Origin: an uncultured Bacilli bacterium
GTDB lineage: Bacteria; Bacillota_I; Bacilli_A; RF39; UBA660
Direction: 5' to 3'
DNA length: 64,000 nt
Assembly: GCA_934096595.1 (NCBI GenBank)
Contig: CAKOMH010000001.1
Location: 494 to 64,493 of the forward strand
The translations under genes and the position numbers were made by a program. The stretch's first letter is position 1, and the number at the start of each line of letters is the position of its first letter. The notes under the pieces were generated by a model. The model was not told the DNA's origin, ran no database searches, and worked only from the letters and a program-made list of their open reading frames with translations. Shown one piece after another: positions 3,083 to 64,000 of the stretch.

Positions 3083-3452
3083 GGGGCAGCATTGGTTTCG
3101 ACAGATATTTGTAAATTTTAGATGGCAAGTAGTCATGAAAACGACTTAAAATTTTCAATTAAATTTAAATGACGAAACAGAAGGAAACTTTGGTTTCAAT
3201 TTTGCTCCTTCATTTGCTTAAGTAAGCATTGGAGCTGCTTATTCTAGATTTATCTGTGATTTAGTTTAAGTATAATATTAGCGGATTATATTATTTTATT
3301 TGATTAGAATAAAATAATGAATAATATCTAATCTAGTTATAAATAAGGTAAGTTAAAGCCATTTTTATAATGAAATTCAAGTTTTAACTAAACTTGTAGA
3401 AGTCTAAGGTTTAGATATTTGGACAGGAGTTCAACTCTCCTCTGCTCCACCA
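3083..3452 (+). ncRNA. ssrA: tmRNA (SsrA), about 370 nt. It has a 5' GGGGCAGCATTGGTTTCGACAG acceptor/tRNA-like half and a 3' T-arm-like GAGTTCAACTCTCC plus GCTCCACCA end. The internal tag ORF ends ...NFGFNFAPSFA-TAA.
   Basis: The 5' and 3' ends match the hallmark tmRNA tRNA-like domain. The tag reading frame GAC GAA ACA GAA GGA AAC TTT GGT TTC AAT TTT GCT CCT TCA TTT GCT TAA gives a degradation tag ending in FA, as in Mollicutes/Erysipelotrichia-type tags. There is a consensus promoter upstream and a terminator downstream. Confidence 0.85.
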
Positions 3453-4431: not shown

Positions 4432-5262
4432 TTAGTTATTAAAACTATCATCATTATTTAAATAATTAAATAAATCATTTAATTCACTTAATGAACTATC
4501 TTCTTCGTCTTCTTCTTTTTTCTCTTCTTCTATTTCTTTAGAAGTTTCTTCTTCATTTTTATCTTCTGTAAAATCAGTTATATCAACAACCTTTTGCTTA
4601 TCAATATGATTATCTTCTTCTTTATCTTCATCGTTAAAACCATACATTGATGAGAAATCAAATGACGAAGCAAAATCATCTTTATTTTCTTCTACAGTAT
4701 CTTCTTTTCTATCATCTTCAGTGTTTTCTACTTTTTCTTCTTCTTTATCTGAACTCTCAGCATCATCAGAGCCAAAAATATCTGTATCAAAATCTAAATT
4801 AAAATCATTATTATCATCAAAACTAAAAGGAACATCTTCTTCTTTTTCTTCTACACTAACATTATCTTTTTTAAAAGCACTTTCTTCACCGCCAATAAAG
4901 TCTACGGCATCAGTTAAAGCTTCATTATAGAAAGATACTGTTTCTTTAACAGAATCATACTTTTCTAATTCTGATGTATTATCTCTTAATTTATCAATTA
5001 AATCTTTAACACTAATCTTTAAATTTTCTAATTCGTTATCAGTATTATCATATTCTTTATCAATTTCAATAATCCTTAGAATTCTTTCCATTTCCCAATA
5101 AATATCTTTAGTTTTGTTTAATAAATCTAATAATTTAGTATTTTCTTCTTTAATACCTTTAAATTTTTCAGCATTGCTTCTTGCTTCTTCTTCATTTTGT
5201 GTAGCTTCCGTAACTACATTTTTAATTTTATCACACTGTTCTAAAATAATTTGTTTATTCAT
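4432..5262 (-). CDS. Hypothetical acidic coiled-coil protein. The N-terminal half is helical and the C-terminal half is very D/E-rich.
   Basis: 276-aa ORF immediately downstream of rplQ. Composition only; no recognised domain. Confidence 0.5.
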   Translation of the reverse strand: MNKQIILEQCDKIKNVVTEATQNEEEARSNAEKFKGIKEENTKLLDLLNKTKDIYWEMERILRIIEIDKEYDNTDNELENLKISVKDLIDKLRDNTSELEKYDSVKETVSFYNEALTDAVDFIGGEESAFKKDNVSVEEKEEDVPFSFDDNNDFNLDFDTDIFGSDDAESSDKEEEKVENTEDDRKEDTVEENKDDFASSFDFSSMYGFNDEDKEEDNHIDKQKVVDITDFTEDKNEEETSKEIEEEKKEEDEEDSSLSELNDLFNYLNNDDSFNN

Positions 5263-5337
5263 AACTATCCGTCCCTCTATTATTACTATAAATAAACTAT
5301 ACCATAAATACTTGTTTAATGCAATAAAAAAAGAACT

Positions 5338-5682
5338 CTAAACAAGTTCTAATTTTACAGTTAGAGCATCGTCTCCAACTCTTTCTTTTAATTTAATAAT
5401 TCTAGTATATCCACCGTTACGATCTTTATATTTAGGTGCTAGTTCATTAAATACTTTACTAACTACATCTTTATCATTATGTAAGAAAGCAAGTGCTTTT
5501 CTTCTAGCAACTAGAGAACCATCTTTACCATAAGTAATCATACGATCAACAAATTTTCTAGCTTCTTTAGCTCTAGCTTCAGTTGTTACAACATAACCAT
5601 TGTTAATAACATCTTTAGTAAGACCAGCAAGAATACTTCTACGAATACGAGATTCTCTATTTAATTTTCTGTACTTTGTCAT
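5338..5682 (-). CDS. rplQ: 50S ribosomal protein L17
   Basis: The translation matches the L17 family (…RRKALAFLHNDKDVV… GGYTRIIKL). Confidence 0.95.
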   Translation of the reverse strand: MTKYRKLNRESRIRRSILAGLTKDVINNGYVVTTEARAKEARKFVDRMITYGKDGSLVARRKALAFLHNDKDVVSKVFNELAPKYKDRNGGYTRIIKLKERVGDDALTVKLELV

Positions 5683-5697
5683 ATTACCTCCTAATAA

Positions 5698-6654
5698 TTA
5701 GTCTTTAAAATTTAGACCCATTTCTTTAACTTTATCAATTACTTCTTTTAAAGATTTTTTACCTAAGTTTCTAATCTTTGTAACTTCAACTTCTTTTTTG
5801 TTAATTAAATCTTGAACAGTATTTACGCCTGCTCTCTTCAAACAGTTATAAGCACGAACAGAGAATTCAATTTCTTCAATAGGAGTTTCTAAAGTCTTAG
5901 TAATTGTATCTACTTTCTTTTCTGCCATAATTCCACCAACATCAGCAATATTATTTAAATCAGCAATAATATTAAAATGTTCGATTAAAATCTTAGCAGA
6001 TAAAGCCATTGCTTCTTCGGGAGTTATTGAACCATTTGTATAAACATTCATAATTAGTTTATCAAAATTTTCATTTTGACCTACACGAGTTGGTTCTACT
6101 TCGTAACTAACTCTTTCGATAGGTGAGTATAAACTATCAATAGCAATAACTCCTAATTTTTTTTCTCCAAGTAATTTTTCATTTGCTTTTGCATCAACAT
6201 ATCCACGACCAGTATCAATAGTCATTTCCATATCAATTTTGCCACCCTTAACTAAATTACAAATAACTAAGTCAGGATTTACAACTTCAATTTCGGCATC
6301 GCAAGCAATCATACCAGCAGTTACTTTTCCTTCAGTATTTGCTGTTAAGTGAAGAACCTTATTTGCTAAACTCTCTTTACTAGCATGATTAATTAATACT
6401 ACACTCTTTAAATTTAGAATAATTGTTGTTACATCTTCAACTACACCATCAATTTTTTGGAATTCATGCATTACTCCATCAATTTTAACAGAAGTAATAG
6501 CACATCCAGGTAAACTTGATAACATAACTCTTCTTAAAGCATTACCAATAGTAGTACCAAATCCTCTTTCTAGTGGATCAAGTTCAAATCTTCCATAGTG
6601 ACTATTTTCAACATATTCTGCAATTTTATAATCAGGTTTTTCAAATTTTATCAT
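5698..6654 (-). CDS. rpoA: DNA-directed RNA polymerase alpha subunit
   Basis: The RpoA N- and C-terminal domain motifs are present. The start was moved to the internal ATG at 6654 (MIKFEKP), which has an AGGAAA RBS; the track ORF 5698..6732 overlaps rpsK. Confidence 0.93.
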   Translation of the reverse strand: MIKFEKPDYKIAEYVENSHYGRFELDPLERGFGTTIGNALRRVMLSSLPGCAITSVKIDGVMHEFQKIDGVVEDVTTIILNLKSVVLINHASKESLANKVLHLTANTEGKVTAGMIACDAEIEVVNPDLVICNLVKGGKIDMEMTIDTGRGYVDAKANEKLLGEKKLGVIAIDSLYSPIERVSYEVEPTRVGQNENFDKLIMNVYTNGSITPEEAMALSAKILIEHFNIIADLNNIADVGGIMAEKKVDTITKTLETPIEEIEFSVRAYNCLKRAGVNTVQDLINKKEVEVTKIRNLGKKSLKEVIDKVKEMGLNFKD

Positions 6655-6673
6655 ATAATTACAGTTTCCTTTC

Positions 6674-7057
6674 TTAATTTCTTGGACGTTTTGGTGGACG
6701 ACATCCGTTGTGTGGAACTGGTGTAATATCATTGATTGCAGTAATTTCTAATCCAGCAGTTTGTAGAGAACGAATAGCGTTTTCTCTACCAGCTCCTAAG
6801 CCTTTAACAAATACTTCAACTTTTCTAACACCATTGTCAAAAGCAACTTTAGCAGCAGCCTCAGCACTCATACCAGCAGCATAAGGAGTTTTCTTCTTTG
6901 AACCCTTATAACCAATAGTACCAGCAGAAGCCCAACTAATTACATTACCATTTACATCAGTAATTGATACAACAGTATTATTATAAGTTGCATGAATATG
7001 TGCTTGTGCTTCAGGAATATTCTTCTTTACTTTTCTTTTTCTTCTATTATAAGCCAT
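6674..7057 (-). CDS. rpsK: 30S ribosomal protein S11
   Basis: S11 family translation. Confidence 0.95.
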
Positions 7058-7070
7058 GATTGTTTACCTC

Positions 7071-7445
7071 CTACTTACTTATTTTTTTCTTATTTGCAAC
7101 AGTCTTACCCTTACCTTTTCTTGTACGAGCATTTCTACTAGTTCTTTGACCATGAACTGGTAAACCTTTTTTATGTCTTGTACCTTGGTAAGAATTAATC
7201 TCCATCTTGTTTTTAATGTTCATTTGAACTTCACGACGAAGATCACCTTCTACAACATATTTTTCAACTTGTGCTCTAATTGCAGCAACTTCAGCTTCAG
7301 TTAAATCTTTGCCTTTTTTAGTTCTATCAACTTTTGCATCATCGCAAATAGTGTTAGCAAGATTTCTACCAATACCATAAATTGCAGTTAAGCCAATACA
7401 AATATGTTTTTCGTTAGGAATTTCAATATTTTTAATACGTGCCAT
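7071..7445 (-). CDS. rpsM: 30S ribosomal protein S13
   Basis: S13 family translation (MARI.NI.IP..K...I.LT.IYGIG). Confidence 0.95.
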   Translation of the reverse strand: MARIKNIEIPNEKHICIGLTAIYGIGRNLANTICDDAKVDRTKKGKDLTEAEVAAIRAQVEKYVVEGDLRREVQMNIKNKMEINSYQGTRHKKGLPVHGQRTSRNARTRKGKGKTVANKKKISK

Positions 7446-7457
7446 AATTACCTCCTA

Positions 7458-7571
7458 TTAGCCTTGTACTTGTTTGTGTTTTGGATTTTCACAAATAACC
7501 ATTACTTTACCTTTTCTTTTGATAATTTTACATTTTGCACAAATTTTCTTTACAGATGGTCTAACTTTCAT
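7458..7571 (-). CDS. rpmJ: 50S ribosomal protein L36 (37 aa: [37 protein letters not shown])
   Basis: Found by manual translation of the gap between infA and rpsM. The 60-aa ORF-track cutoff excluded it. Canonical L36 sequence. Confidence 0.9.
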
Positions 7572-7584
7572 AATAATTCCTCCA

Positions 7585-7806
7585 TTATCTCTTATTCCAT
7601 ACAATGCGCCCACGTGTTAAATCATAAGGCGATAATTCTATTGTAACTGTATCACCTGGTAAGATACGAATCATATTAACGCGCATTTTACCAGAAACGT
7701 AAGCTTTAACAGTCTTTTGAAATTTAGGTAAGTTTACTAGGTATTCGCCACCTTTTAAAACTTCCGTTACTTTTCCTTCAACTTCTATTTTATCTTCTTT
7801 AGCCAT
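7585..7806 (-). CDS. infA: Translation initiation factor IF-1
   Basis: S1-like IF-1 sequence. Confidence 0.95.
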
Positions 7807-7807
7807 T

Positions 7808-8554
7808 TTATTCTCCTGTTAATATTTCGTAACCATCTTTAGTTACTAATACGGTATGTTCAAAATGAGCAGATGGACTTCCATCATCAGTACAAATAGT
7901 CCAGTCATCATCAAGCATATAGACATATCTTTCTCCCAAGTTTAACATTGGTTCGATAGCAATAGTCATGCCAGCCTTTAAAACCATTCCCGTATCTTTC
8001 TTTCCATAATTTAATACATCAGGATCCTCGTGAAGTTCTGTACCAATACCATGTCCACATAATTCTCTAACAACACTTAAATTATGTTCTTTAGCATATG
8101 TTTCAATAGCATTACTAACATTCCCTAAACGACATCCATCTTTAACTTGATTTATCCCTGCATATAAAGCCTTTTTAGTATGTTCAAGTAAATAAGCCTT
8201 TTCCTTACTAATTTCGCCTACAGGATAAGTAGCAGCAGAATCTGAATGATATCCTTTATAAATCATTGAAATATCAAGTTTTACAATATCACCATTCTTA
8301 AGCTTTCTTTTACCTGGAATTCCATGGACAACTTCATCATTAATAGAAATACATAAATAACCCGGATATCCTTCGTAACCAATAGTTGATGAAACACAAC
8401 CATTTGCTTCCATAAAATCCTTAGCTATTTTTTCTAATTCGCCTGTTGTAATTCCCGGTTTAATATTTTTTTCTAGAAGTTTGTGGCATAAATAGTTAAT
8501 ATGTCCAGAGTGTTTCATTAATTCAATTTCTTTTTCACTTTTAATACTAACCAT
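7808..8554 (-). CDS. map: Methionine aminopeptidase type I
   Basis: MetAP family motifs are present. It sits in the conserved position between adk and infA. Confidence 0.93.
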
Positions 8555-36494: not shown

Positions 36495-36935
36495 ATGAAT
36501 GGAACATATTATCAAAACCCAACTTTCCCAACTAACCAAAATAATTATGATGTCAACATGAATTCTATCCCGAATAATCAAGGTCTTCCTAACAATAACA
36601 ATATGGCTAATAGCACAAATATTCCAAGTACAATAAACAACTACAATCCTGATTATAATCCCACCACATCACTGCCTATGGAGCAAAGTTATATTGAAAA
36701 TATTTTAAGGTTGAATAAAGGAAAAATGGTTAAAGCTTATGTTAGTTTTCCGGATTCTACCGAATGGCGCAACAAAATTTTTGCAGGGCGCATTGAAGAA
36801 GCAGGTCGCGATCATCTAATTATCAGCAACCCCAACACTGGTGAGTGGGATTTAATTTTAATGATTTACTTAAATTATGTTACCTTTGATGAAAGAATAA
36901 ACTATAGCCATAGCTATTCACAAAAGAACTTCTAA
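36495..36935 (+). CDS. gerQ: Spore coat protein GerQ (YwdL)-like, with an N/Q/P-rich N-terminal region and a conserved C-terminal domain
   Basis: C-terminus SYIENILRLNKGKMVKAYVSF..S.EWRNKIFAGRIEEAGRDHLIISNPNTGEWDLILMIYLNYVTFDE closely resembles the GerQ core. N-terminus rich in N/Q/P. Confidence 0.65.
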   Translation: MNGTYYQNPTFPTNQNNYDVNMNSIPNNQGLPNNNNMANSTNIPSTINNYNPDYNPTTSLPMEQSYIENILRLNKGKMVKAYVSFPDSTEWRNKIFAGRIEEAGRDHLIISNPNTGEWDLILMIYLNYVTFDERINYSHSYSQKNF

Positions 36936-39263: not shown

Positions 39264-40033
39264 AACTCTATAATCTCCGATTTTTCATTTTGTTTAGCAC
39301 AACTAATATTTTCAAAATCAACCCCGTACTCCAAGAAAATATTTTTGATTGTTTCCATAGCTTTTTCTTCCGTATTATTTTCATGAGAAAGGTGCGTTAA
39401 TATTATTTTTTGCGTATTTTTGCCAATTAATTTAGCTAAATAGATACTAGCATCTTTATTAGATAAATGTCCATAAGGTCCAACAACTCTATCTTTTAAC
39501 CAAGCTGGATATTTACCATTTAGTAACATCTCCACATCATGATTACTCTCAAACAAATATACAGTCTTATCCCTTAAAGAGTTAAAATATTTTTGATTCA
39601 AATAACCAGTATCAGTTAAATAAACAACGCTATTATTTCCTTCATACAAAATATATCCTTTAGAATCCTTAGTATCATGGCTAGTTTTTATTACTTCAAT
39701 TTTAACATTATCTAAATAAATATCATCATCAAAAAGAATTAAATGTTCATACTTACTTATTGGGTTTTCACTTCCCAACTCACCTATCATTCCTACTGTC
39801 ATATAAACATTTGCCTGATATTTTTTTATATAATTTTCTAAAGCTCCAATATGATCGCTATGAATATGCGATATGATTATAGTATCAATATCAGTTAAAG
39901 AAACGCTTAATTCTTCTAAGCGTTCCTTTATATATCTAACATTAGTTCCCATATCAAACAATATTTTGTGTTTTTCCGTTTCTACATAAGTAGAGTTTCC
40001 CTTAGAACCACTAGCTAATACACATATTCTCAT
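39260..40033 (-). CDS. MBL-fold metallo-hydrolase, YycJ/WalJ-like
   Basis: HIHSDHIG motif. It is positioned before rlmH, as yycJ is in Bacilli. Confidence 0.75.
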   Translation of the reverse strand: MRICVLASGSKGNSTYVETEKHKILFDMGTNVRYIKERLEELSVSLTDIDTIIISHIHSDHIGALENYIKKYQANVYMTVGMIGELGSENPISKYEHLILFDDDIYLDNVKIEVIKTSHDTKDSKGYILYEGNNSVVYLTDTGYLNQKYFNSLRDKTVYLFESNHDVEMLLNGKYPAWLKDRVVGPYGHLSNKDASIYLAKLIGKNTQKIILTHLSHENNTEEKAMETIKNIFLEYGVDFENISCAKQNEKSEIIEL

Positions 40034-41553
40034 TATCTATATATTGTGATAGGATTTATAGCTTTACTGCCTTTTTGATATGGCACCCCAGTCCAGAAAC
40101 CTAAGTGTAAGTGCGTACCAGTAACCAAACCACTCTTACCCATGGCGCCAATCTTCTGTGCACGGCTTACTTGTTGATTTTTAGAAACATAGACATCTGA
40201 CAAGTGGGCATACAATGAACAGTATCCATTTGGATGTTGAACAATAATGTTTAAACCACTACTTTTACCAGCATATCCACCGTAACCAGTCCATATAACT
40301 GTACCAGATGCAATTGCAAAAATTGGTGAGCCATAACCAGTACCAGATATATCTAAACCATCATGACTTGTACGATTAAATAAGTAACGCGTACCAAAAC
40401 CCGAAGTAATAATATATGGCTTTAATGTTGGCCAAGCATATTCCGTACCATCATCAACATAATTACCCCAGTTACCACTCGAAATAGATTTTTTACCTTT
40501 AACAATAACTTCATTAACAGTTTCTCTTACCATATATGTATTATCTTTATCGATAACAACTTGTTGACTGGCATCTCCATTAATTACCTGTGTACGCGAA
40601 GCAACACGGCGAATACCATTAACGCCCTTCGTTTGAACTAAACGATAACTAGTATCTTTAGAATAATCATACTTTGTTTCTGTCGAATATTTTTCTTCAA
40701 CATCTTTAACAATATATTTATCATATACCAATTGTAACATTGGATTAATTAAGGATATAACTACTTTATCTCCAACTGCTAATAAGTCATTTTCACTATT
40801 ATATTTGGGATTAGCTACCAAAAATTCGGAAACATTTAACTCATTAGCCTCGGCAATACTAGCAATTGTATCTCCTACTTTTACTGTATATTCTGATTCT
40901 TTACTATCAGTTCCAAATAACAAATACTTACTTAAGCTATCTACATCTGTAAAAATTTTCTCATCAGTGCTTATATAAGATTCTTTAATTGATATATTTT
41001 CTTGAAAATAAATATTTTCAATTCGTTCACCTACATCAACAATCTCTTTTTGTTCATTATTAATATAAGCTAAATATTCATCTTCCGGAATAAATGATAA
41101 GATAACTTTCTTTATTGCTTCTTCAAATACCTTTTCATCTAAAACATTAATTTTAAACAATACTTTTGAATCTCCATTATCATCTTTATCACTTACTGTA
41201 ATAGTATAACCCTTTATAGTAAAATTCTTTGATTCTTTTATTTTATCATAAATTTCTGTAACACTAGAAACACTAGAATTATATGTATTTAATTTAGTTA
41301 TTGAAAATCCTTTTGGGGGATATACTTGATCTACATTATATTCTTCTTTTATACTCGATTGTTCTTCATTAATAAGTGCATAAAGTTCATCTTGACTACC
41401 AATCATTCCTATTTTTTCACCGTTTAAGTATACTTGATAAACCCCTTCTACTTCATCAGCATAACTAGTTTTATAAGAAGTGGCAATAAACATTGCTACT
41501 CCAAATATCATTGTCGTTAATATGCATAGAATTTGTGTCTTTTTACTCATCAA
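40033..41553 (-). CDS. Membrane-anchored LysM-domain M23 peptidase
   Basis: N-terminal TM, a central LysM (YTVKVGDTIASIA...), and a C-terminal M23 (HDGLDI ... THLHLGF). Confidence 0.85.
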   Translation of the reverse strand: MMSKKTQILCILTTMIFGVAMFIATSYKTSYADEVEGVYQVYLNGEKIGMIGSQDELYALINEEQSSIKEEYNVDQVYPPKGFSITKLNTYNSSVSSVTEIYDKIKESKNFTIKGYTITVSDKDDNGDSKVLFKINVLDEKVFEEAIKKVILSFIPEDEYLAYINNEQKEIVDVGERIENIYFQENISIKESYISTDEKIFTDVDSLSKYLLFGTDSKESEYTVKVGDTIASIAEANELNVSEFLVANPKYNSENDLLAVGDKVVISLINPMLQLVYDKYIVKDVEEKYSTETKYDYSKDTSYRLVQTKGVNGIRRVASRTQVINGDASQQVVIDKDNTYMVRETVNEVIVKGKKSISSGNWGNYVDDGTEYAWPTLKPYIITSGFGTRYLFNRTSHDGLDISGTGYGSPIFAIASGTVIWTGYGGYAGKSSGLNIIVQHPNGYCSLYAHLSDVYVSKNQQVSRAQKIGAMGKSGLVTGTHLHLGFWTGVPYQKGSKAINPITIYR

Positions 41554-55791: not shown

Positions 55792-55844
55792 AAAACTCTA
55801 TTACGCAATTTTCTATTTTTTTAGATTTTGCGTAATAGAGTTTT
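55792..55844. terminator. Perfect 17-bp inverted repeat (AAAACTCTATTACGCAA-N19-TTGCGTAATAGAGTTTT) between convergent genes. Bidirectional terminator or hairpin; the right arm contains the stop codon of the Gly-rich gene.
   Basis: Arms at 55792-55808 and 55828-55844 are exact reverse complements. Confidence 0.6.
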
Positions 55845-57258
55845 ATTCATCTATACTCGCCAAAGTTATTCTGGCATAACCATTGCCTTTTTTAGCACAA
55901 TAACTAATAGGCGTTTCTTCATTACAAGTAGTTGATATTGTTTTCGTACTCTCTTCATTAGACTCTTCACAATTGTAACAGTACATAACTTTGTTAGTTA
56001 AAAGCAAATTCCCGATATAACCTGAGCCACCGCCGCCAGCATTAAAATCTTCTCCGTAAGCAGAATTTATATTTCCACCATAAAATCCGCCACCGCCACC
56101 AGACACACCGTTACTATAGCCTATTCCTGTTCCGTCGCAACCTTTTCCAAAAGCACAGCCAGATATTTGATTTCCGCCAAGTCCACTATTATTTTCTCCT
56201 TGCATTCCAGCTATTCCACCGCCAGAACCGCCGTGTTGAGAATAGTTTCCAGCACCACCACCACCAGATACTATGTAAATACTATTTTTATAATTTTCTA
56301 AACTACTGAGCAAGCCTGATTTTGTGGCAATATGAGTTGCTCCCCCACCTCCGCCGCCAGTTTCAGATTGATTCGTATTTATTTCAAATTTGTTATTATC
56401 CCAAGTTCCAGAACCACCGCCATTATAACCGCCAGCAGTATCTTGACCTTTAACAGCTGTTGAGCCGGTGCCGCCAACATTTAAGTAAACAACATCATTT
56501 TTAGATAAAATAACAAATCCAGATGCAAAACCACCATATCCCCCCAACTCTAGTAAACGACCATCTATTATCGAACTTCCACCTTGTGCGCCCCATGTTT
56601 CTAACTTATAAGTTCCCGATACTGGGGCAATAAAAGTCTGCTCTGCTCCTGTATAATCAAAATTAAATACCATATCACCAGTATAATTAAAATTAATTGG
56701 TTTACCCACTACTACTATTTTAGACTTAAAAGTTTTAATCTCATTATTTAAATCTTCTAAAGTAGTATTATAATCTATCCATAATCTTAAAGAATAATCT
56801 TTACTTTGCCCTGATTTCAAAATACCTGTAGTTAATTTTCTACTTTCAATACTACTAGTATTTACTTTATTTGCATTATCAAAATTACTAAGTAGGTTTA
56901 TTTCTTTAATATCATTATTTTCCAACATGACATCAATAAATTTACTGGATAAAGTACTATTATTTAACACTTCTAAATTAACTGAATACTCAGCAGTTAT
57001 ATCACAAGTATTAATAACCGTAAAAGTATAAGGAGTTAAACTTTTACCCTTATCATTACTTATTGGATAAGCATTATCTAAATTAATACTATTCTCTTGA
57101 TTACTTATAGATAAGTCAAAACACTTAGATTCTGCCATATTAGTAGTATCTTGACTAACCGATATATTCCACATCGAATAAGATACTCCTATACCCAACA
57201 ATATTATTAATACTAAACTTATACTTATAAATATTACACTATTTTTCATAACTTCCAC
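55843..57258 (-). CDS. Secreted glycine-rich repeat protein: an N-terminal signal-anchor and Ig-like domain, then a FIAPVSGTYKLETWGAQGG motif followed by long GGxGG/GGGGG tracts and a Cys-containing C-terminal region
   Basis: Direct reading. Reminiscent of bacterial glycine-rich (Gly_rich-like) secreted proteins. No search was possible. Confidence 0.55.
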   Translation of the reverse strand: MEVMKNSVIFISISLVLIILLGIGVSYSMWNISVSQDTTNMAESKCFDLSISNQENSINLDNAYPISNDKGKSLTPYTFTVINTCDITAEYSVNLEVLNNSTLSSKFIDVMLENNDIKEINLLSNFDNANKVNTSSIESRKLTTGILKSGQSKDYSLRLWIDYNTTLEDLNNEIKTFKSKIVVVGKPINFNYTGDMVFNFDYTGAEQTFIAPVSGTYKLETWGAQGGSSIIDGRLLELGGYGGFASGFVILSKNDVVYLNVGGTGSTAVKGQDTAGGYNGGGSGTWDNNKFEINTNQSETGGGGGGATHIATKSGLLSSLENYKNSIYIVSGGGGAGNYSQHGGSGGGIAGMQGENNSGLGGNQISGCAFGKGCDGTGIGYSNGVSGGGGGFYGGNINSAYGEDFNAGGGGSGYIGNLLLTNKVMYCYNCEESNEESTKTISTTCNEETPISYCAKKGNGYARITLASIDE

Positions 57259-57611: not shown

Positions 57612-59318
57612 TTATTTTCTTTTTTTTATTAATAATCTATCTGCTAAAACATCATCTAACATTTTTAGCGAATCATCTTCATTAATATCTGTATAAAGAT
57701 AATTATTACCAATAATCTCTTGGATTTTAGGAAATTTCTCTAATAACTTACTTAATTTATTAGTAAATAAATAACTATTATTATCATTTATATTCTCTTC
57801 GGAAATACCAGAACTTATATTAGTAAATACATCTTTTAGATCTATCTTTTTATATTCTTCATAAATCTTTTCTATATCTTCTTCTTTAGTATAGTAAATA
57901 GTACTTAAGGCTTTAAAGAAACTATCTTTGATTATTTTATATTGTTTACAAAACTTATCATAACAATAAGTTTCATTATTATTACCTATATCATCTACTA
58001 AGAAGGCTCCATCTGCAATCTGATTAGCAATTAAATAATATAATAAAATATTATCTTCTAAACTTAAATCATTATTATCTATATTATATTTAATTAAATT
58101 ACTTATAGCAATTTTAAATATAGATATATAATGTAAATTACTAAGTGTATCATTTACTTTAAAAATATCATCTTTATCATAATTATCTTTACTACCTAAT
58201 AACTTAATTATATAATTATTTCTACAATCTAAAGCATCCATTGTATATATAATACTTAATATTTCTTTCTTTTCTTCAATATTATTAGCGCCCAAATAAC
58301 TAAATAAAGCCTCTATATCTTCATCATTAATAGCCTTATAATAATCTTTTATTCCATAGTCATTAAAAAGAGAGCATAATAACAATTTATTTTCTAATTT
58401 ACGATAATATTCATAAGTATAAGCAAACTCCTTGCTTAAAGATTCGTAGCCGCCTTCTATTCCTAAATTATATAAAATACTTTCCGCACTTGCTTCCATT
58501 AGAAAACTATGATTATGTCCATTGAAGAAATCAAGCTTTAAAACACCGCCGTTATCTAACTTATCGCTACAAGCCCTTTGTCTTACATGGCTAAGTTCAT
58601 GTTTTACTGTTTCATCAATCCTAGCCAATATTTTATCCAGATCATAACTACTATTTAAAATATTATTTAAGCATATTTCAATAACATTATTACTATAAGA
58701 ATAACTAGCATAGGCAATATTTTCTTCATCATGGCTTGCAATATTGGGAACAAAAACGACACTTAATTCTGTAAAACTATGGATATCTTCATTAGTTCCA
58801 GTACTTAAAACAAATCCTAAATAACTATATAAAGCATTATAAATATCATCTTTTATTAAAGCAATATCTTTTTCACTAAAAGAATAACCATATTCATTAG
58901 TAGCCTTAATATTATTAAAGTAATCCTCATCAAAAAATGAAGTATAATCTAATTCTTTTAGTTCATTTGCCAAGTTAAAAGAATTAACTTTTATTTTAGC
59001 AATCAACTCATCAATAGTAATATTAAAATCTTTTTCACACAGAATATTATCTCTATTAATAAGTTCATCTACTTCTGAATCATTTAATTTAACAACATCA
59101 GTAATTCCCAAATCCGTTAAATTTTTTATATTTTCTTGTAATAAAACTTCTAAGTCTTCTGTTCTATTATTTGAATCAGCCTTACTAACCATATCAATTT
59201 TATTATCTTGTTTACATCCGCAGGCATTTATGGTAACTGTTAAACATAATAGAAAAGATGCTATTCTTCTATTAATATTTTTCACTTTTTCCCCCTGTAA
59301 TTGCCTACTATTATACAC
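57612..59318 (-). CDS. Secreted protein or lipoprotein with an HExxH zinc-metallopeptidase motif (VKHELSHV, followed 30 aa later by MEASAE). Paralog of 59343..60935.
   Basis: Signal peptide with a Cys-containing lipobox-like INACGC. The family is distantly like DUF4932 (HE[FL]xH...EA). Confidence 0.55.
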   Translation of the reverse strand: MYNSRQLQGEKVKNINRRIASFLLCLTVTINACGCKQDNKIDMVSKADSNNRTEDLEVLLQENIKNLTDLGITDVVKLNDSEVDELINRDNILCEKDFNITIDELIAKIKVNSFNLANELKELDYTSFFDEDYFNNIKATNEYGYSFSEKDIALIKDDIYNALYSYLGFVLSTGTNEDIHSFTELSVVFVPNIASHDEENIAYASYSYSNNVIEICLNNILNSSYDLDKILARIDETVKHELSHVRQRACSDKLDNGGVLKLDFFNGHNHSFLMEASAESILYNLGIEGGYESLSKEFAYTYEYYRKLENKLLLCSLFNDYGIKDYYKAINDEDIEALFSYLGANNIEEKKEILSIIYTMDALDCRNNYIIKLLGSKDNYDKDDIFKVNDTLSNLHYISIFKIAISNLIKYNIDNNDLSLEDNILLYYLIANQIADGAFLVDDIGNNNETYCYDKFCKQYKIIKDSFFKALSTIYYTKEEDIEKIYEEYKKIDLKDVFTNISSGISEENINDNNSYLFTNKLSKLLEKFPKIQEIIGNNYLYTDINEDDSLKMLDDVLADRLLIKKRK

Positions 59319-59342
59319 AAACTTTGGAAAAAGTAAAGTTTA

Positions 59343-60935
59343 TTATTTTAAAACGAATCTAAATTCACTATCATTCTTTATTAAGCCATCTTTAACTATC
59401 AATAAATTATTATAATTAAAATCACTTAAAAAAGTACCACCATTTACTATATTTCTAATTTTAGGAAACTTATTTACTAAATTGGCTATTTTGCTAACAT
59501 CTTCACCACTTACTTTAGATTCTTTAACATAACTACTTATATTGCTTAACCAAATTTCTTTATCTTTATTATCATAATAATCTTTTATATCTTCATAACT
59601 AAGATTATATATTGAACTTAAATAATTAAAATATATCTCTTCAATCAACTTATAATTATCTAAAAATTCTTTATAAAATGTATAACTAACTTCATGAGTA
59701 GTATAATCATAATTACCAAAACTAGCACTATCTAATATATTTACTAAGATAAAATGATATAATATTAAATTATCATCCAAACTTAATACTTCTTTTTGCC
59801 TATTATAAAGTATTAACTGGAGAACACTATTTTTTAATATATAACTTTCAATAATTCCCCCAGTACTATCTGTTAAAAATTCATTTATATTAATATCATT
59901 TAATTTACTAAAATCATCACTATTAATTAATCTACTCCAATAACTATTTCTAACTAATCTTCCATCAATTAACCACAACATACTTAATAAATCTTTTATT
60001 TCTTTATCACTATAAGCATTAAAATAGTTACAAAAATTTAAAATATCGCCTTTAAATAAAGTCTCATAATATTTGTCTATAGATTTATCATTATCTAAAA
60101 AACTTAATAAAAGCAACTTACTTTCATACTTTCTTTCTTCTAAGTTATTATAACTATAATTAAAGTTCTTATTAATTGGTTGATAATTATTTTTTAAAAT
60201 ATTATAGTTATAAGAAGTTGCAACCGCCTCATTTAAGAAAGATATTCCCCCTTCTCCTTTTAATTTATAATGACATTTGTTATCTTCGCAAGGTACTACA
60301 AACATATGATTAAATTCATGATTAATTGTATCAAATAAATTCATATATAAATCATCCAAGTTATTAGCATTCTTTAATATATTATTTAAAGATATAACTA
60401 TCAAATTATCTTTTTCAAAATATTCTCCCAGTTGTTCTTGGTCTTCAAAATCACCCATTAATATTTTTAAAGATAATAACTTATGAACATCATCTTTTCT
60501 TCTCTTATCTAAAAGTACTCTATTAATAATATCTAATATAGTATTTTCTATATATTTTCTTATTTCATCATCAGCTATATCACTAATTAATAAATAATTT
60601 TCTTTATCTTGAATATATATTTTACTATTTAAATTTATAATGTTATATAAATCTATTTTATTGCCCGTAAAGTTATAATCACAAGAAACATTACTAATTT
60701 TACCTATTTTTATTAAGTCTTGTAATTCTTTATCGCTTAATAAAGTCTTAGCATTTAAAGGCATGGTAATATCATTTACTTGATTTATAAAATCAATGTC
60801 ACTCTTAGTATCATCTATAGCCTCTGCTTTAGCCTTAATTAAATGATTTTCTCTTCCATTTATAAAAGAAACTATAGTTATAGAAAGGCAAAGTCCTAAT
60901 ATCGCTCCCATCTTGCCTAAGCTTTTAATTGTCAT
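59343..60935 (-). CDS. Secreted HExxH putative metallopeptidase (INHEFNHMFVVP, followed 27 aa later by NEAVAT). Tandem paralog of 57612..59318.
   Basis: Signal peptide with AKA-EA cleavage. Shares a C-terminal ...KFPKI[QR].I.G... block with its neighbor. Confidence 0.55.
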   Translation of the reverse strand: MTIKSLGKMGAILGLCLSITIVSFINGRENHLIKAKAEAIDDTKSDIDFINQVNDITMPLNAKTLLSDKELQDLIKIGKISNVSCDYNFTGNKIDLYNIINLNSKIYIQDKENYLLISDIADDEIRKYIENTILDIINRVLLDKRRKDDVHKLLSLKILMGDFEDQEQLGEYFEKDNLIVISLNNILKNANNLDDLYMNLFDTINHEFNHMFVVPCEDNKCHYKLKGEGGISFLNEAVATSYNYNILKNNYQPINKNFNYSYNNLEERKYESKLLLLSFLDNDKSIDKYYETLFKGDILNFCNYFNAYSDKEIKDLLSMLWLIDGRLVRNSYWSRLINSDDFSKLNDININEFLTDSTGGIIESYILKNSVLQLILYNRQKEVLSLDDNLILYHFILVNILDSASFGNYDYTTHEVSYTFYKEFLDNYKLIEEIYFNYLSSIYNLSYEDIKDYYDNKDKEIWLSNISSYVKESKVSGEDVSKIANLVNKFPKIRNIVNGGTFLSDFNYNNLLIVKDGLIKNDSEFRFVLK

Positions 60936-61014: not shown

Positions 61015-62098
61015 TTATTTTTTTAATTTTAATACTGACTCCATAATAGCCAATATATCTCCATCTAAAACTTTGAAGGCTTGACTAGTTTCATATCCAC
61101 TTCTTAAGTCTTTTACCAAAGTATAAGGTTCTAAAACATAATTTCTAATTTGACTACCAAAATTAATGCTATCACTAATTCCCTTTTCTTTATTTAACTC
61201 GGCTTCTTTTTTTTCTACTTCTAATTGATACAATTTAGATTTTAGCATTTCCATGGCTCTTTCTTTATTGCGTAGCTGACTTCTTTCTACTTGGCAAGAT
61301 ACCACTATTTTGGTTGGCAAATGCGTAATTCTAACCGCCGAATCACTAGTATTTACCGATTGACCACCAGCCCCACTCGAATGAAAAACATCTATTTTTA
61401 AGTCTTCATCTTTAATTTCAATATCACTTACTTTATCAAATTCTGGCACTACTGTAACAGAAGCAAAGGAAGTATGGCGTCTTTTATTAGAATCAAACGG
61501 TGATATTCTTACTAGTCTATGGACCCCTTTTTCGCCTTTAAAATATCCATAACTCATATTGCCACTAATTCTTAAAGTTACCGATTTTACCCCTGCTTCT
61601 TCGCCTTTTAAAAAGTCAATAACCTCATATTTATATCCATTTGCCTCACAAAATCTCTCATACATTCGAAGTAACATCGAAGCCCAATCCATAGCCTCGG
61701 TTCCCCCCGCCCCCGGATGAATTTCTAAAAAGCAATTTAAATTATCATAAGGCCCATTAAGTAAGGTTGCTACTTCTAATTCTTCAATTAATTTTTCAGC
61801 ATTTAAAAACTCGGTCTCTAAATCATCTTTTAGGCTATCATCTAAACTAACTAACTCTATTAAGTCTTTTAACCCATCAACGATACTACTAGCCTTCTTT
61901 AAATCACTAAGTTCTTTTTTTAAATTAATAAGTTCACTATTAACTTTATTGGCATAAACATTATCATTCCAAATATTAGGTTGATTTAAAATATCCTCTA
62001 ATTCTTTTATTCTTTTGTCTTTAGCACTAACATCAAAGTGACCTCCCAATATCACTTAATTTATTTACTAACACATTATATCTTTCATTAATATCCAT
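61015..62098 (-). CDS. prfB: Peptide chain release factor 2 with a programmed +1 ribosomal frameshift. Frame 0 gives MDINERYNVLVNKLSDIGRSL and stops at TGA; translation continues in the +1 frame as DVSAKDKR...
   Basis: SPF tripeptide motif (RISPFDS) and GGQ (SGAGGQS). The frameshift cassette GGGAGG-TCA-CTT-TGA-T lies at about 62030-62050. ATG at 62098 with a GGAGA RBS. The track ORF 61015..62055 starts at an artefactual GTG. Confidence 0.9.
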
Positions 62099-62834
62099 TA
62101 TTTATTCTCCTTAAAACCATATCTATATCTAAAAGAGTAGTATTATCATCTACCTTTAAAGACTTTTGTAAACTAAAATAAAACTCCTCTAAACTCTCAG
62201 TAACACTAATTATACCACATTCTAAAGCCCCTCGGCTAAAATCTACTAATCGAAAGTGATTTAAAACTTCATAAAGACTATAATCCCCTAAATATTTAAA
62301 AATACTTCTTAAAATTATTTGCCAAATTTTATAAGCCATCTCAATATATAATTTATCGCTATCATAATTTTTATCAATATTAGATAAATCAAAATCTAAT
62401 AAATATAAATTACCATTTTTATAAAGCATATTACCAGAAAGAATATCAACTAAGTTAATATTATTATTAGCCAATAGTCTAATACTTTCTAATAACTTTT
62501 GATAAGCCTCCAATAACTCTTTTATCTTCGTTTCTCTATTTATAAAATTAACATTAGAAGCGTTTATAAACTTCGTATTATATCCCAAGATAGCCTTATC
62601 AGTCATATATATATCACGAGGTAATATTAACTGACTTTCACCATCTAACTTTCCTAATTTAACTAATAAATTAAATATATCTTTTCCAATTTTTTGGTCT
62701 AAACTACGATAACAATCTAAAAATATTTTTACGATATAATCATTTTCTTGAAAATACAATTTATTTGTACTTTTTACTTTAAACTCCTTTAATTTTGGTA
62801 TATCTTTAACACTTTGCACTTTAATTATTGCCAT
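62088..62834 (-). CDS. Mini protein-kinase-like fold protein (Kdo/RIO/CotS-like phosphotransferase), paralog 1. It has a beta3-Lys (IVKIF), a catalytic D-x4-N (DILSGN) and a DFD (LLDFD).
   Basis: Direct motif reading. It overlaps the prfB start by 11 nt and paralog 2 by 10 nt. Confidence 0.5.
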   Translation of the reverse strand: MAIIKVQSVKDIPKLKEFKVKSTNKLYFQENDYIVKIFLDCYRSLDQKIGKDIFNLLVKLGKLDGESQLILPRDIYMTDKAILGYNTKFINASNVNFINRETKIKELLEAYQKLLESIRLLANNNINLVDILSGNMLYKNGNLYLLDFDLSNIDKNYDSDKLYIEMAYKIWQIILRSIFKYLGDYSLYEVLNHFRLVDFSRGALECGIISVTESLEEFYFSLQKSLKVDDNTTLLDIDMVLRRINNGY

Positions 62835-63550
62835 AACTTCTCATTCCTTAAACATCTTCTTATATCACCAACGGTTTCTATTTTTTCTTGACTCTTTCTT
62901 GCTATTTTTAATCTTAGTAAATTTATAAAAGCAATATAATCCGTACTTTCTAAGTTATCAATTCTTTCTTTTATATAATTAATATCTATATCATTTAACC
63001 AATTTAAATCATAGGAATCAAGCATTCTATCAATTATTAAATTAAACAAAGACATTCCCATTATTTTATAAGCCATATCTATATCATCAAAATAAATACA
63101 GTTATCAAAATCAATTAAATATAAATTATTTTTATCAAATAAAACATTTCCGCCCCAAATATCGGGATTTAAAATACCAATAGCACTTATTTTTTGAATA
63201 TCTTCTAAAAGCCCCATTACCATTTTAATAACCTTATTAATAAATATATCTTCAGTTAAGTAATCCAACGGTTTTCCTAAACAGATAGGCATACTATAAC
63301 CTAGAAATTCTTTTTCAGTTATATATAAATTTTGAGGTAACTCTAAATATTTAATGTCCTTTAATTCTGATAACTTTTCTAATACTTGCAATCTATTATA
63401 ATTAGTCCCATCGCTTAATAATCTATCACAAATATTTAAGACTTTTAAATACTTACCATTTTTATAATAGATTTTACTTCTACTCCATATCATTAATTCT
63501 TTATCCGGAAGTCTTAAATCTTCAATACTTTTTACCTTTACTATTGCCAC
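62825..63550 (-). CDS. Mini protein-kinase-like fold protein, paralog 2 (YLKVLNI, DIWGGN, LIDFD)
   Basis: Same motif set. The C-terminal ETVGDIRRCL block is shared with paralog 3. Confidence 0.5.
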   Translation of the reverse strand: MAIVKVKSIEDLRLPDKELMIWSRSKIYYKNGKYLKVLNICDRLLSDGTNYNRLQVLEKLSELKDIKYLELPQNLYITEKEFLGYSMPICLGKPLDYLTEDIFINKVIKMVMGLLEDIQKISAIGILNPDIWGGNVLFDKNNLYLIDFDNCIYFDDIDMAYKIMGMSLFNLIIDRMLDSYDLNWLNDIDINYIKERIDNLESTDYIAFINLLRLKIARKSQEKIETVGDIRRCLRNEKLWQ

Positions 63551-63552
63551 AT

Positions 63553-64000
63553 TTATCCTCTTTTAGTTAAATTAAGACACATTCTTAAATCGCCAACTGT
63601 TTTTATTCTTTTCCTAGTATAAGTTTCCAATTTCCATCTTAATAGTTCAAAATATAAATCATAATTAGTACTTCTAAAAGACTTAAATTCTTGTTCTAAA
63701 GTCTCTAAATCTCTTTCCATTAATAAGGGTGACCCAAAACCATCTTTTACTAAACTTAAATATACAGTTTGAAATATATTATGTAAAGTTCTTAAATATA
63801 CTCGATCATCGCAATAAATACTATTATCAAAATCAATTAAATACATTCTTCCATCATATAAAATATTATTAGAAGTAGTATCATAATTAAATATCTTATT
63901 ATCTGCAAGTATTCTTATATCTTTTCTAAGTAATTTAAAAGATTTTATTACATCATCATATTTACTATTTAAACTAATATCCATTATTGTCTTAGCATCT
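63553..64000 (-). CDS. Mini protein-kinase-like fold protein, paralog 3. It is 5'-truncated by the window end; the reading frame stays open to 64000.
   Basis: YLIDFD and the C-terminal KTVGDLRMCL block. No stop is found upstream of the M at 63984 within the window. Confidence 0.5.
   Translation of the reverse strand, partial: DAKTIMDISLNSKYDDVIKSFKLLRKDIRILADNKIFNYDTTSNNILYDGRMYLIDFDNSIYCDDRVYLRTLHNIFQTVYLSLVKDGFGSPLLMERDLETLEQEFKSFRSTNYDLYFELLRWKLETYTRKRIKTVGDLRMCLNLTKRG

Follow-up and report, generated by a model that had tools for sequence, protein, structure and literature searches.

At one end of a 64,000-nt stretch of DNA from an uncultured Bacilli bacterium (contig CAKOMH010000001.1; the whole stretch is referred to here as the window), three consecutive genes lie on the minus strand immediately ahead of prfB, the gene encoding release factor 2 (RF2). 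The three genes, designated paralogs A, B and C in the order in which they approach prfB, are predicted to encode compact proteins with a protein-kinase-like (PKL) fold. The array and prfB comprise the following features:

63553 to beyond 64000, minus strand: 3' part of paralog A, open to the window edge with 148 codons visible (hidden Markov model E value 1.4e-32)
63826-63882, minus strand: catalytic core of paralog A, NYDTTSNNILYDGRMYLIDFD
62825-63550, minus strand: paralog B, 241 aa, GTG start
63443-63445, 63146-63163 and 63104-63112, minus strand: key residues of paralog B, respectively K36, the catalytic loop D130-N135, and D147-F-D149
62088-62834, minus strand: paralog C, 248 aa, with its catalytic core at 62388-62447
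62106-62112, minus strand: Shine-Dalgarno sequence of prfB, AAGGAGA, within the final codons of C and 7 nt ahead of the prfB ATG
61015-62098, minus strand: prfB (TIGR00020, 470 bits against a cutoff of 370)
62098-62036, minus strand: open reading frame 1 (ORF1) of prfB, 21 codons, MDINERYNVLVNKLSDIGRSL
62033-62047, minus strand: programmed +1 frameshift cassette, consisting of a Shine-Dalgarno-like GGGAGG (62047-62042), 3 nt, and CTT TGA (62038-62033)

A preliminary description of this DNA had reported three consecutive paralogs of about 240 aa ahead of prfB, which the coordinates and the pairwise identities confirm. The junctions that it gave, a near-abutment, a 10-nt overlap and an 11-nt overlap with prfB, were all verified in the sequence. 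The TAA stop codon of A is followed by 2 nt and then by the GTG of B, whose Shine-Dalgarno sequence AGAGGA lies inside the final codons of A; B and C overlap by 10 nt; and C, with the end of its stop codon at 62088, overlaps by 11 nt the prfB gene that begins with the ATG at 62098. The full-length form of A, 239 aa at coordinates 7279-7998, is available from a 97%-identical genome (locus L005). Paralog B is 35% identical to this full-length A (E 5e-35) and 33% identical to C (E 4e-20), DNA-level repeats with spacings of 722 and 716 nt occur among the paralogs, and by these sequence comparisons the paralogy of A, B and C is far beyond chance. A rough tree places A and B as sisters with C apart, which suggests that the duplications are old. 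The motifs first noticed in these proteins (YLKVL and IVKIF, DIWGGN and DILSGN, LIDFD and LLDFD) are present; the C-terminal TVGD[IL]R.CL block that was said to be common to all three is found in A and B only, C having the degenerate TLLDIDMVL.

The number of paralogs in the array had been left as three or more. The loci of relatives give an array of exactly three genes, so that the count of three stands and a larger one does not. The upstream neighbour of the array in relatives L001, L003, L005, L008 and L010 is a short-chain dehydrogenase gene, separated from A by a gap of about 170 nt, and in L008 a gene on the opposite strand intervenes between the two, indicating that the unit starts at A. 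At the other end of the array, prfB is read through its frameshift cassette: the +1 shift occurs at T62035, reading resumes at GAT 62034-62032, and the +1 frame runs uninterrupted into the PCRF and RF-1 domains as far as the stop codon at 61015-61017. The cassette is the same in 10 of 10 related loci checked. It is because of this programmed frameshift that a plain list of open reading frames starts prfB at 62055, the true ATG being at 62098.

Relatives of the three proteins form a sizeable family. A word-indexed homolog search recovered near-identical proteins only, and a single metagenome scan one partial locus; exhaustive HMMER searching with a profile of the window clade yielded 434 representatives at E<=1e-3, nearly all of them 230-265 aa long and mostly from uncultured gut Bacilli labelled Tenericutes or Mycoplasmatota. 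Window-type A, B and C fall into three 90%-identity clusters of 163, 476 and 417 members, with the source name 'unknown'; across the family, 'unknown' and 'hypothetical protein' are the only names given by the sources, and neither Pfam nor NCBIfam has a dedicated model. No homologs were found in phage and plasmid collections, and PADLOC and PHROGs returned weak generic kinase-domain similarity only (MkoA, PD-T4-6 and one 'kinase' phrog). Measured against a relative at about 70% identity, A, B and C have ratios of nonsynonymous (dN) to synonymous (dS) substitution of 0.20, 0.24 and 0.31, respectively, as compared with 0.03 for prfB, and the dN of the paralogs is 6-8 times that of prfB. The possibility that the genes are artefactual reading frames in AT-rich DNA was rejected on the grounds of dN/dS values of 0.2-0.3 and conserved orthologs.

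An alignment of 133 family members has the consensus IGxGxxxxCY...VxK ... DxHxxNIL ... IDLD, in which G22 (120 of 132 sequences), K36 (130 of 131), P72, G84-Y85, D130, N135, D147 and D149 (numbered as in B) are near-invariant. Conservation is 97% or higher for D130, N135 and D147, all of which occur in A, B and C, and N164 is kept in 77% of the family. Five of the ten key residues of the PKL superfamily (G52, K72, D166, N171 and D184; Kannan et al. 2007, PMC1821047) have their counterparts here in G22, K36, D130, N135 and D147.

The assignment to a kinase fold is carried by profile comparison and by structure prediction. Compared with PDB sequences, the family profile matches NleH1 (E 1.9e-10), NleH2 (E 1.7e-8) and a related effector kinase, and later CaMK1G, Cdc7, YabT, DYRK, RIO2 and Bud32, with the G-loop, Lys, D-x4-N and DFG Asp in register with those of the PDB kinases; D130, N135 and D147 line up with their counterparts in PRP4 and NleH. 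A profile made from the window clade alone matches kinases only, OspG among them, at E of about 0.02. AlphaFold2 prediction of B from 9 close sequences reached a predicted local distance difference test (pLDDT) score of 39, and the 133-sequence alignment gave a usable model with a pLDDT of 95.8 and a predicted template modelling score (pTM) of 0.91. As modelled, the protein has a two-lobed kinase fold comprising beta3 (33-38) with K36, alpha-C (48-61), alpha-E (104-123), beta7/8 (136-145) and an alpha-F-like helix (157-177); D130 and N135 lie on the loop that follows alpha-E, and the DFD lies immediately past beta8 (strand 143-145). The long helix at 157-177 comes 7 residues past the DFD, leaving no activation segment, and the B model has neither an APE motif nor a P+1 loop after the DFD. 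Foldseek comparison of the model with PDB returned only kinases at probability 1.0, and its matches in a viral library were likewise kinases only. The preliminary description had proposed a kinase fold and had set two outcomes as telling against it, placement in a non-kinase family and motifs lying off the fold; neither came out.

Finer assignment within the superfamily proved to be a different matter. Pfam gave no match to the window proteins at E<=1 and no kinase model, and NCBIfam gave weak Bud32 and KdkA matches (E 3e-4 to 0.07) around the catalytic loop of each of them, with scores far below the cutoffs. Scans of the family member by member produced scattered sub-threshold matches to Pkinase, RIO1, ABC1, APH, OspG, Bud32, KdkA, NleH and LanKC. 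The proposal that the genes belong to a Kdo/RIO/CotS-like family thus finds no support, since all such models, as well as those of Bud32 and APH, fall far below threshold.

The top sequence match of the family profile is to the effector kinases NleH1/NleH2 and OspG (PDB 4lrj, 4lrk and 4q5e; NF041316; PF22303). It spans the G-loop, beta3 Lys, catalytic loop and DFG Asp, the loop reading DTTETN in NleH1 and DTTSNN in paralog A, and a compact fold without an activation segment is common to both groups. The NleH/OspG proteins differ in having an N-terminal secretion or targeting region, which the window proteins lack, and in a kinase domain that stops after subdomain VII, whereas the model of B adds four C-terminal helices. 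They are moreover type III effectors of Gram-negative pathogens, whereas the window genes are part of a chromosomal housekeeping operon in a Gram-positive-type gut commensal. The NleH and OspG models (NF041316, PF22303) have no match on the window proteins, and reach sub-threshold scores in 6 and 2 of the 133 members, respectively.

Bud32 (of KEOPS) and RIO kinases resemble the window family in size (about 220-260 aa), in lacking an activation loop, and in having D-x4-N followed by [IL]DF. Both act on the translation apparatus, and both are archaeal and eukaryotic and not typical of Bacilli. Bud32 models score 13-21 bits on the window proteins against cutoffs of 125-447, the Pfam RIO1 model has no match on them, the RIO-specific N-terminal helix or winged helix is missing, and no Kae1 partner was seen. 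In Hanks-type kinases (PF00069; PknB, YabT) the secondary-structure elements follow one another as they do in the family, and the catalytic Lys, Asp, Asn and Asp are shared, but the window loops (NPDIWGGN, LVDILSGN and NYDTTSNN) lack the His and Arg of HRD and the catalytic-loop Lys, and the window proteins are about 30-40 residues shorter, without activation segment, APE or P+1 loop. The loop and DFD-type motifs of KdkA and of CotS/APH look alike to those found here, and KdkA is of similar size; the KdkA model NF002475 scores 12-15 bits on the window proteins against a cutoff of 142, and the CotS/APH models (PF01636, TIGR02906) have no match on them, with sub-threshold scores in 1 (CotS) and 3 (APH) of the 133 members. 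A Gram-positive-type host should lack Kdo and lipopolysaccharide. By these comparisons the Kdo-kinase, RIO, Bud32, CotS/APH and NleH families do not include A, B and C, and the family is a new compact branch of the PKL superfamily, its nearest neighbours being NleH/OspG by sequence and Hanks-type kinases by structure.

The three copies are not equally intact. None of A, B and C has lost K36, D130, N135, D147 or D149, and orthologs of A also keep a GxxG G-loop (KGDNGEIY in the full-length ortholog) along with the Lys, D-x4-N and DFD. G22 is replaced by Trp in B, the Gly being still present in the B ortholog of L008, and by Lys in the C of the window, the Gly being absent from C orthologs throughout; across the alignment, 12 of 132 sequences have a residue other than Gly at this position, and 8 of these 12 belong to B or C paralogs from the clade with the triplication. 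His132 and Asn164, which are features of the family, have been lost from all three paralogs. In 91 of 132 members an acidic residue stands at either of two alpha-C columns (E58 in B, E55 in A, neither in C), in an alignment of the helix that is not robust. The C-terminal third of C has diverged.

Outright decay is seen in other strains. The C orthologs of L001 (at about 10800) and L002, from two independent samples, carry a CAA-to-TAA nonsense change at codon 29 with the prfB overlap retained, and a widespread N-truncated 172-aa allele of C with G84E and D149Y is present on 26 contigs (protein clusters P0256 and P0013). In L010, a genome more distant from the window, the middle paralog is split by a frameshift (5173-5821), and the third (6001-6747) has Gly, Thr and Ser at the positions of D130, N135 and D147, so that by its sequence this copy is a natural pseudokinase. 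Rare variants of B and C (P0003, P0004 and P0267) have in-frame internal deletions between short direct repeats (LID...LIID, KLY...KLY), which could be real or could be assembly artefacts.

The linkage to prfB is close and, within the window clade, stable. The 11-nt overlap of C with prfB is identical in seven related loci (L001-L006 and L008), even where C itself is at 48% identity. No terminator was predicted between the array and prfB, in a scan that performed at chance level and has low power in AT-rich DNA; a promoter scan around the array was also at chance level, with little power in such DNA, and Rfam detected no RNA element nearby. Judged from this layout, A, B, C and prfB are almost certainly transcribed and translated as one tightly packed unit, very probably with co-translation, and the single translationally coupled operon of the preliminary description is supported, with the overlap kept in seven loci and no predicted terminator to interrupt it. 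The expectation that secA normally precedes prfB is right for Bacillus, the prfB gene of B. subtilis being co-transcribed behind secA (PMC8073009); secA is not adjacent here.

Among ten genomic contexts of the family that were judged independent, prfB is adjacent or nearby in five and absent from the vicinity in five. The former comprise the window clade; L010, with a 106-nt gap; L009, where a distant single-copy member precedes prfB-yitT by 35 nt and the remaining flanks are unrelated; and L011 and L016, whose members lie inside prfB-yitT-ftsE-ftsX-pcsB-...-uvrB blocks at 4-6 kb from prfB. The latter are L012, L013, L014, L015 and L017. At individual loci, single-copy members (in L011, L012, L013, L015 and L016) adjoin cell-wall, division or sporulation genes.

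The linkage is most simply seen as inherited operon architecture in a small, compact genome, and not as evidence that the kinases act on RF2, because the ribosome-binding site of prfB is embedded in C, because the kinases change quickly and some strains have decayed copies, and because adjacency to prfB is not family-wide. Were the tie to an essential gene tight and indispensable, copies would not be expected to decay as they do in some strains. It is probable that the array arose by old tandem duplication of a compact, cytoplasmic PKL-superfamily member of about 240 aa, the three copies now being about 30-35% identical, and that its association with prfB is architectural.

As to what such proteins might do, the sequence motifs and the model make Mg-ATP-dependent phosphotransfer or hydrolysis the most likely mechanism. 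ATP would bind between the two lobes, with K36 holding the alpha and beta phosphates, N135 and D147 holding Mg2+, and D130 acting as the catalytic base; the gamma-phosphate would then be moved to a substrate or hydrolysed, without control by an activation loop. Other kinases that lack this loop, such as NleH/OspG, RIO and Bud32, operate in this manner and rely on a bound partner to recognise their substrates; for the window family, a substrate or partner that is itself a protein is moderately favoured over a small molecule. With its full nucleotide-binding set, A would be the one fully competent enzyme of the trio, and B and C may be weakened or regulatory copies. The loss in B and C of the G-loop Gly that about 90% of the family keeps, together with the disabling of copies in some lineages, suggests that the trio is probably partly redundant or sub-functionalised.

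Several observations weigh against this interpretation. None of the window proteins reaches the threshold of a curated kinase family, and it is the broad family profile, rather than the window proteins by themselves, that produces the strong match to NleH. The equivalents of the HxD His, the HRDxK Lys and the alpha-F Asp (the last being Asn164 in 77% of the family) are absent from A, B and C, and an acidic residue of alpha-C is found at the aligned columns in just 69% of the family; with these residues absent and the alpha-C acid variable, catalysis is not assured.

Another interpretation, to which we assign a small but appreciable likelihood, is that the proteins phosphorylate a small molecule (a sugar, a cell-envelope precursor or some other metabolite) in the manner of Kdo kinase, CotS, APH or fructosamine kinase. 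Their catalytic loops lack the protein-kinase Lys, and the family consensus of D-x-H-x-x-N followed by I-D-[LF]-D is presumably similar to the signatures of KdkA, CotS and APH, as DIWGGN presumably is to the loops of fructosamine kinases; there are weak matches to KdkA, RfaY and, once, CotS, and APH matches in 3 of the 133 members. Distant single-copy members adjoin cell-wall or division genes (ftsEX-pcsB, an M14 peptidase and YkuD; murT and ftsA-ftsZ; bacA and dacB; a Mur ligase), and the window clade has the short-chain dehydrogenase upstream of its array. The dehydrogenase gene is, however, about 170 nt distant, with the opposite-strand gene between in L008; the best sequence and fold matches are to protein kinases or ATPases (NleH, CaMK, Rad53, PknB, YabT, RIO2) and not to APH or choline kinase; and a large helical substrate subdomain like that of APH/ChoK is missing. 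A third possibility is that the kinases target the termination machinery, whether RF2, the ribosome or some associated factor. This would make the operon a functional module, comparable to the loop-less ATPases RIO and Bud32, which are directed at the ribosome or at tRNA and to which the family has weak similarities. The retention of the prfB overlap down to 48% identity of C would fit such a role, as would the distant single-copy member directly upstream of prfB between different flanks (L009), the two further members within 6 kb of prfB (L011 and L016), and an ABC-F ATPase, of a type that includes translation factors, two genes upstream of the array in the window clade. Yet prfB is not nearby in five of the ten independent contexts, and since prfB, yitT, ftsEX and uvrB apparently form an old syntenic block of Bacilli, proximity may simply be inherited; kinase copies are lost or disabled in some strains in which prfB is intact, and the kinases evolve 6-8 times faster than prfB. 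We know of no precedent for a termination-directed kinase, and consider such a function highly unlikely. The same low likelihood attaches to a bolder form of the idea, in which the proteins are dedicated regulators or ATP-driven chaperones of termination that phosphorylate or remodel RF2 or the terminating ribosome, a feedback module through translational coupling with the frameshift-autoregulated prfB and a bacterial counterpart of RIO and Bud32. Were the linkage to prfB to prove functional, it would provide the first example of a kinase module associated with release factors in bacteria; current evidence is not in its favour.

A role in sporulation, in the manner of the CotS-type spore-coat kinases, was also weighed. 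The host lineage has sporulation genes, with a GerQ homolog in the window itself (E 2e-34), and elsewhere one family member lies beside cotZ and ftsA-ftsZ-spoIIGA-sigE and another right after dacB-spmA-spmB; related uncultured orders of Bacilli are predicted to include spore formers (PMC10868615). Against this, A, B and C fall outside the CotS/APH family, co-transcription with a housekeeping gene such as prfB points to vegetative expression, sporulation-promoter evidence was not found, and the evidence from gene neighbourhoods is anecdotal, all of which makes a sporulation function most unlikely.

Under the favoured interpretation, that of a compact PKL family whose linkage to prfB is architectural, a protein family common in human-gut metagenomes is given a fold and a predicted active site, and the bacterial kinome would gain a compact branch without an activation loop, closest in sequence to the NleH/OspG effector kinases. 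The paralogs of the family, ranging from active-looking through degenerate to dead, also form a natural series for the origins of pseudokinases. Far more speculatively, such chromosomal genes of gut Bacilli could be the long-sought relative or source of the NleH/OspG effectors of enteric pathogens.

The remainder of the window places the array in a bacterial chromosome. Proteins are 95-97% identical to those of 'Mycoplasma sp. CAG:956' and of uncultured Hadza-gut Bacilli genomes, and in addition to genes for L9, DnaB, SSB and BipA the window carries the following:

3083-3452, plus strand: transfer-messenger RNA (tmRNA) gene with tag peptide DETEGNFGFNFAPSFA (Rfam score 119 bits)
36495-36932, plus strand: Spore_GerQ spore-coat homolog (E 2e-34)
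40033-41553: M23/LysM/G5 peptidase
55843-57258, minus strand: 471-aa protein with an ALK/LTK-type glycine-rich domain (PF12810, E 7e-33) and strong matches to function-unknown PHROGs (E 6e-32)
57612-59318 and 59343-60935, minus strand: large HExxH paralogs of 568 and 530 aa, 31% identical (E 5e-35), directly downstream of prfB

The tmRNA, L9, DnaB, SSB, BipA, the M23/LysM/G5 peptidase and GerQ together indicate a chromosomal segment of a walled, small-genome member of the gut Bacilli, and the peptidase and GerQ suggest that this walled lineage may be a spore former. An RF2 borne by a recoded phage was entertained and rejected in view of the tmRNA, L9, DnaB, SSB and BipA genes and of the match to gut Bacilli genomes.

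In the window clade prfB is separated from yitT by three inserted large genes, as compared to other lineages in which yitT directly follows prfB. The genes of the 568-aa and 530-aa proteins lie in this interval, and these proteins each have an N-terminal hydrophobic signal or anchor and share an aligned HExxH (VKHELSHV and INHEFNHM). Searches of Pfam, NCBIfam, PADLOC and PDB gave no match to either, and from their sequence features they could represent an unannotated family of secreted metalloproteases. The G+C content is 23-24% at 58001-60000 and 62001-64000, as against 27-33% in most other parts of the window, and these low-G+C stretches coincide with the fast-evolving genes of the kinase-like and HExxH paralogs.

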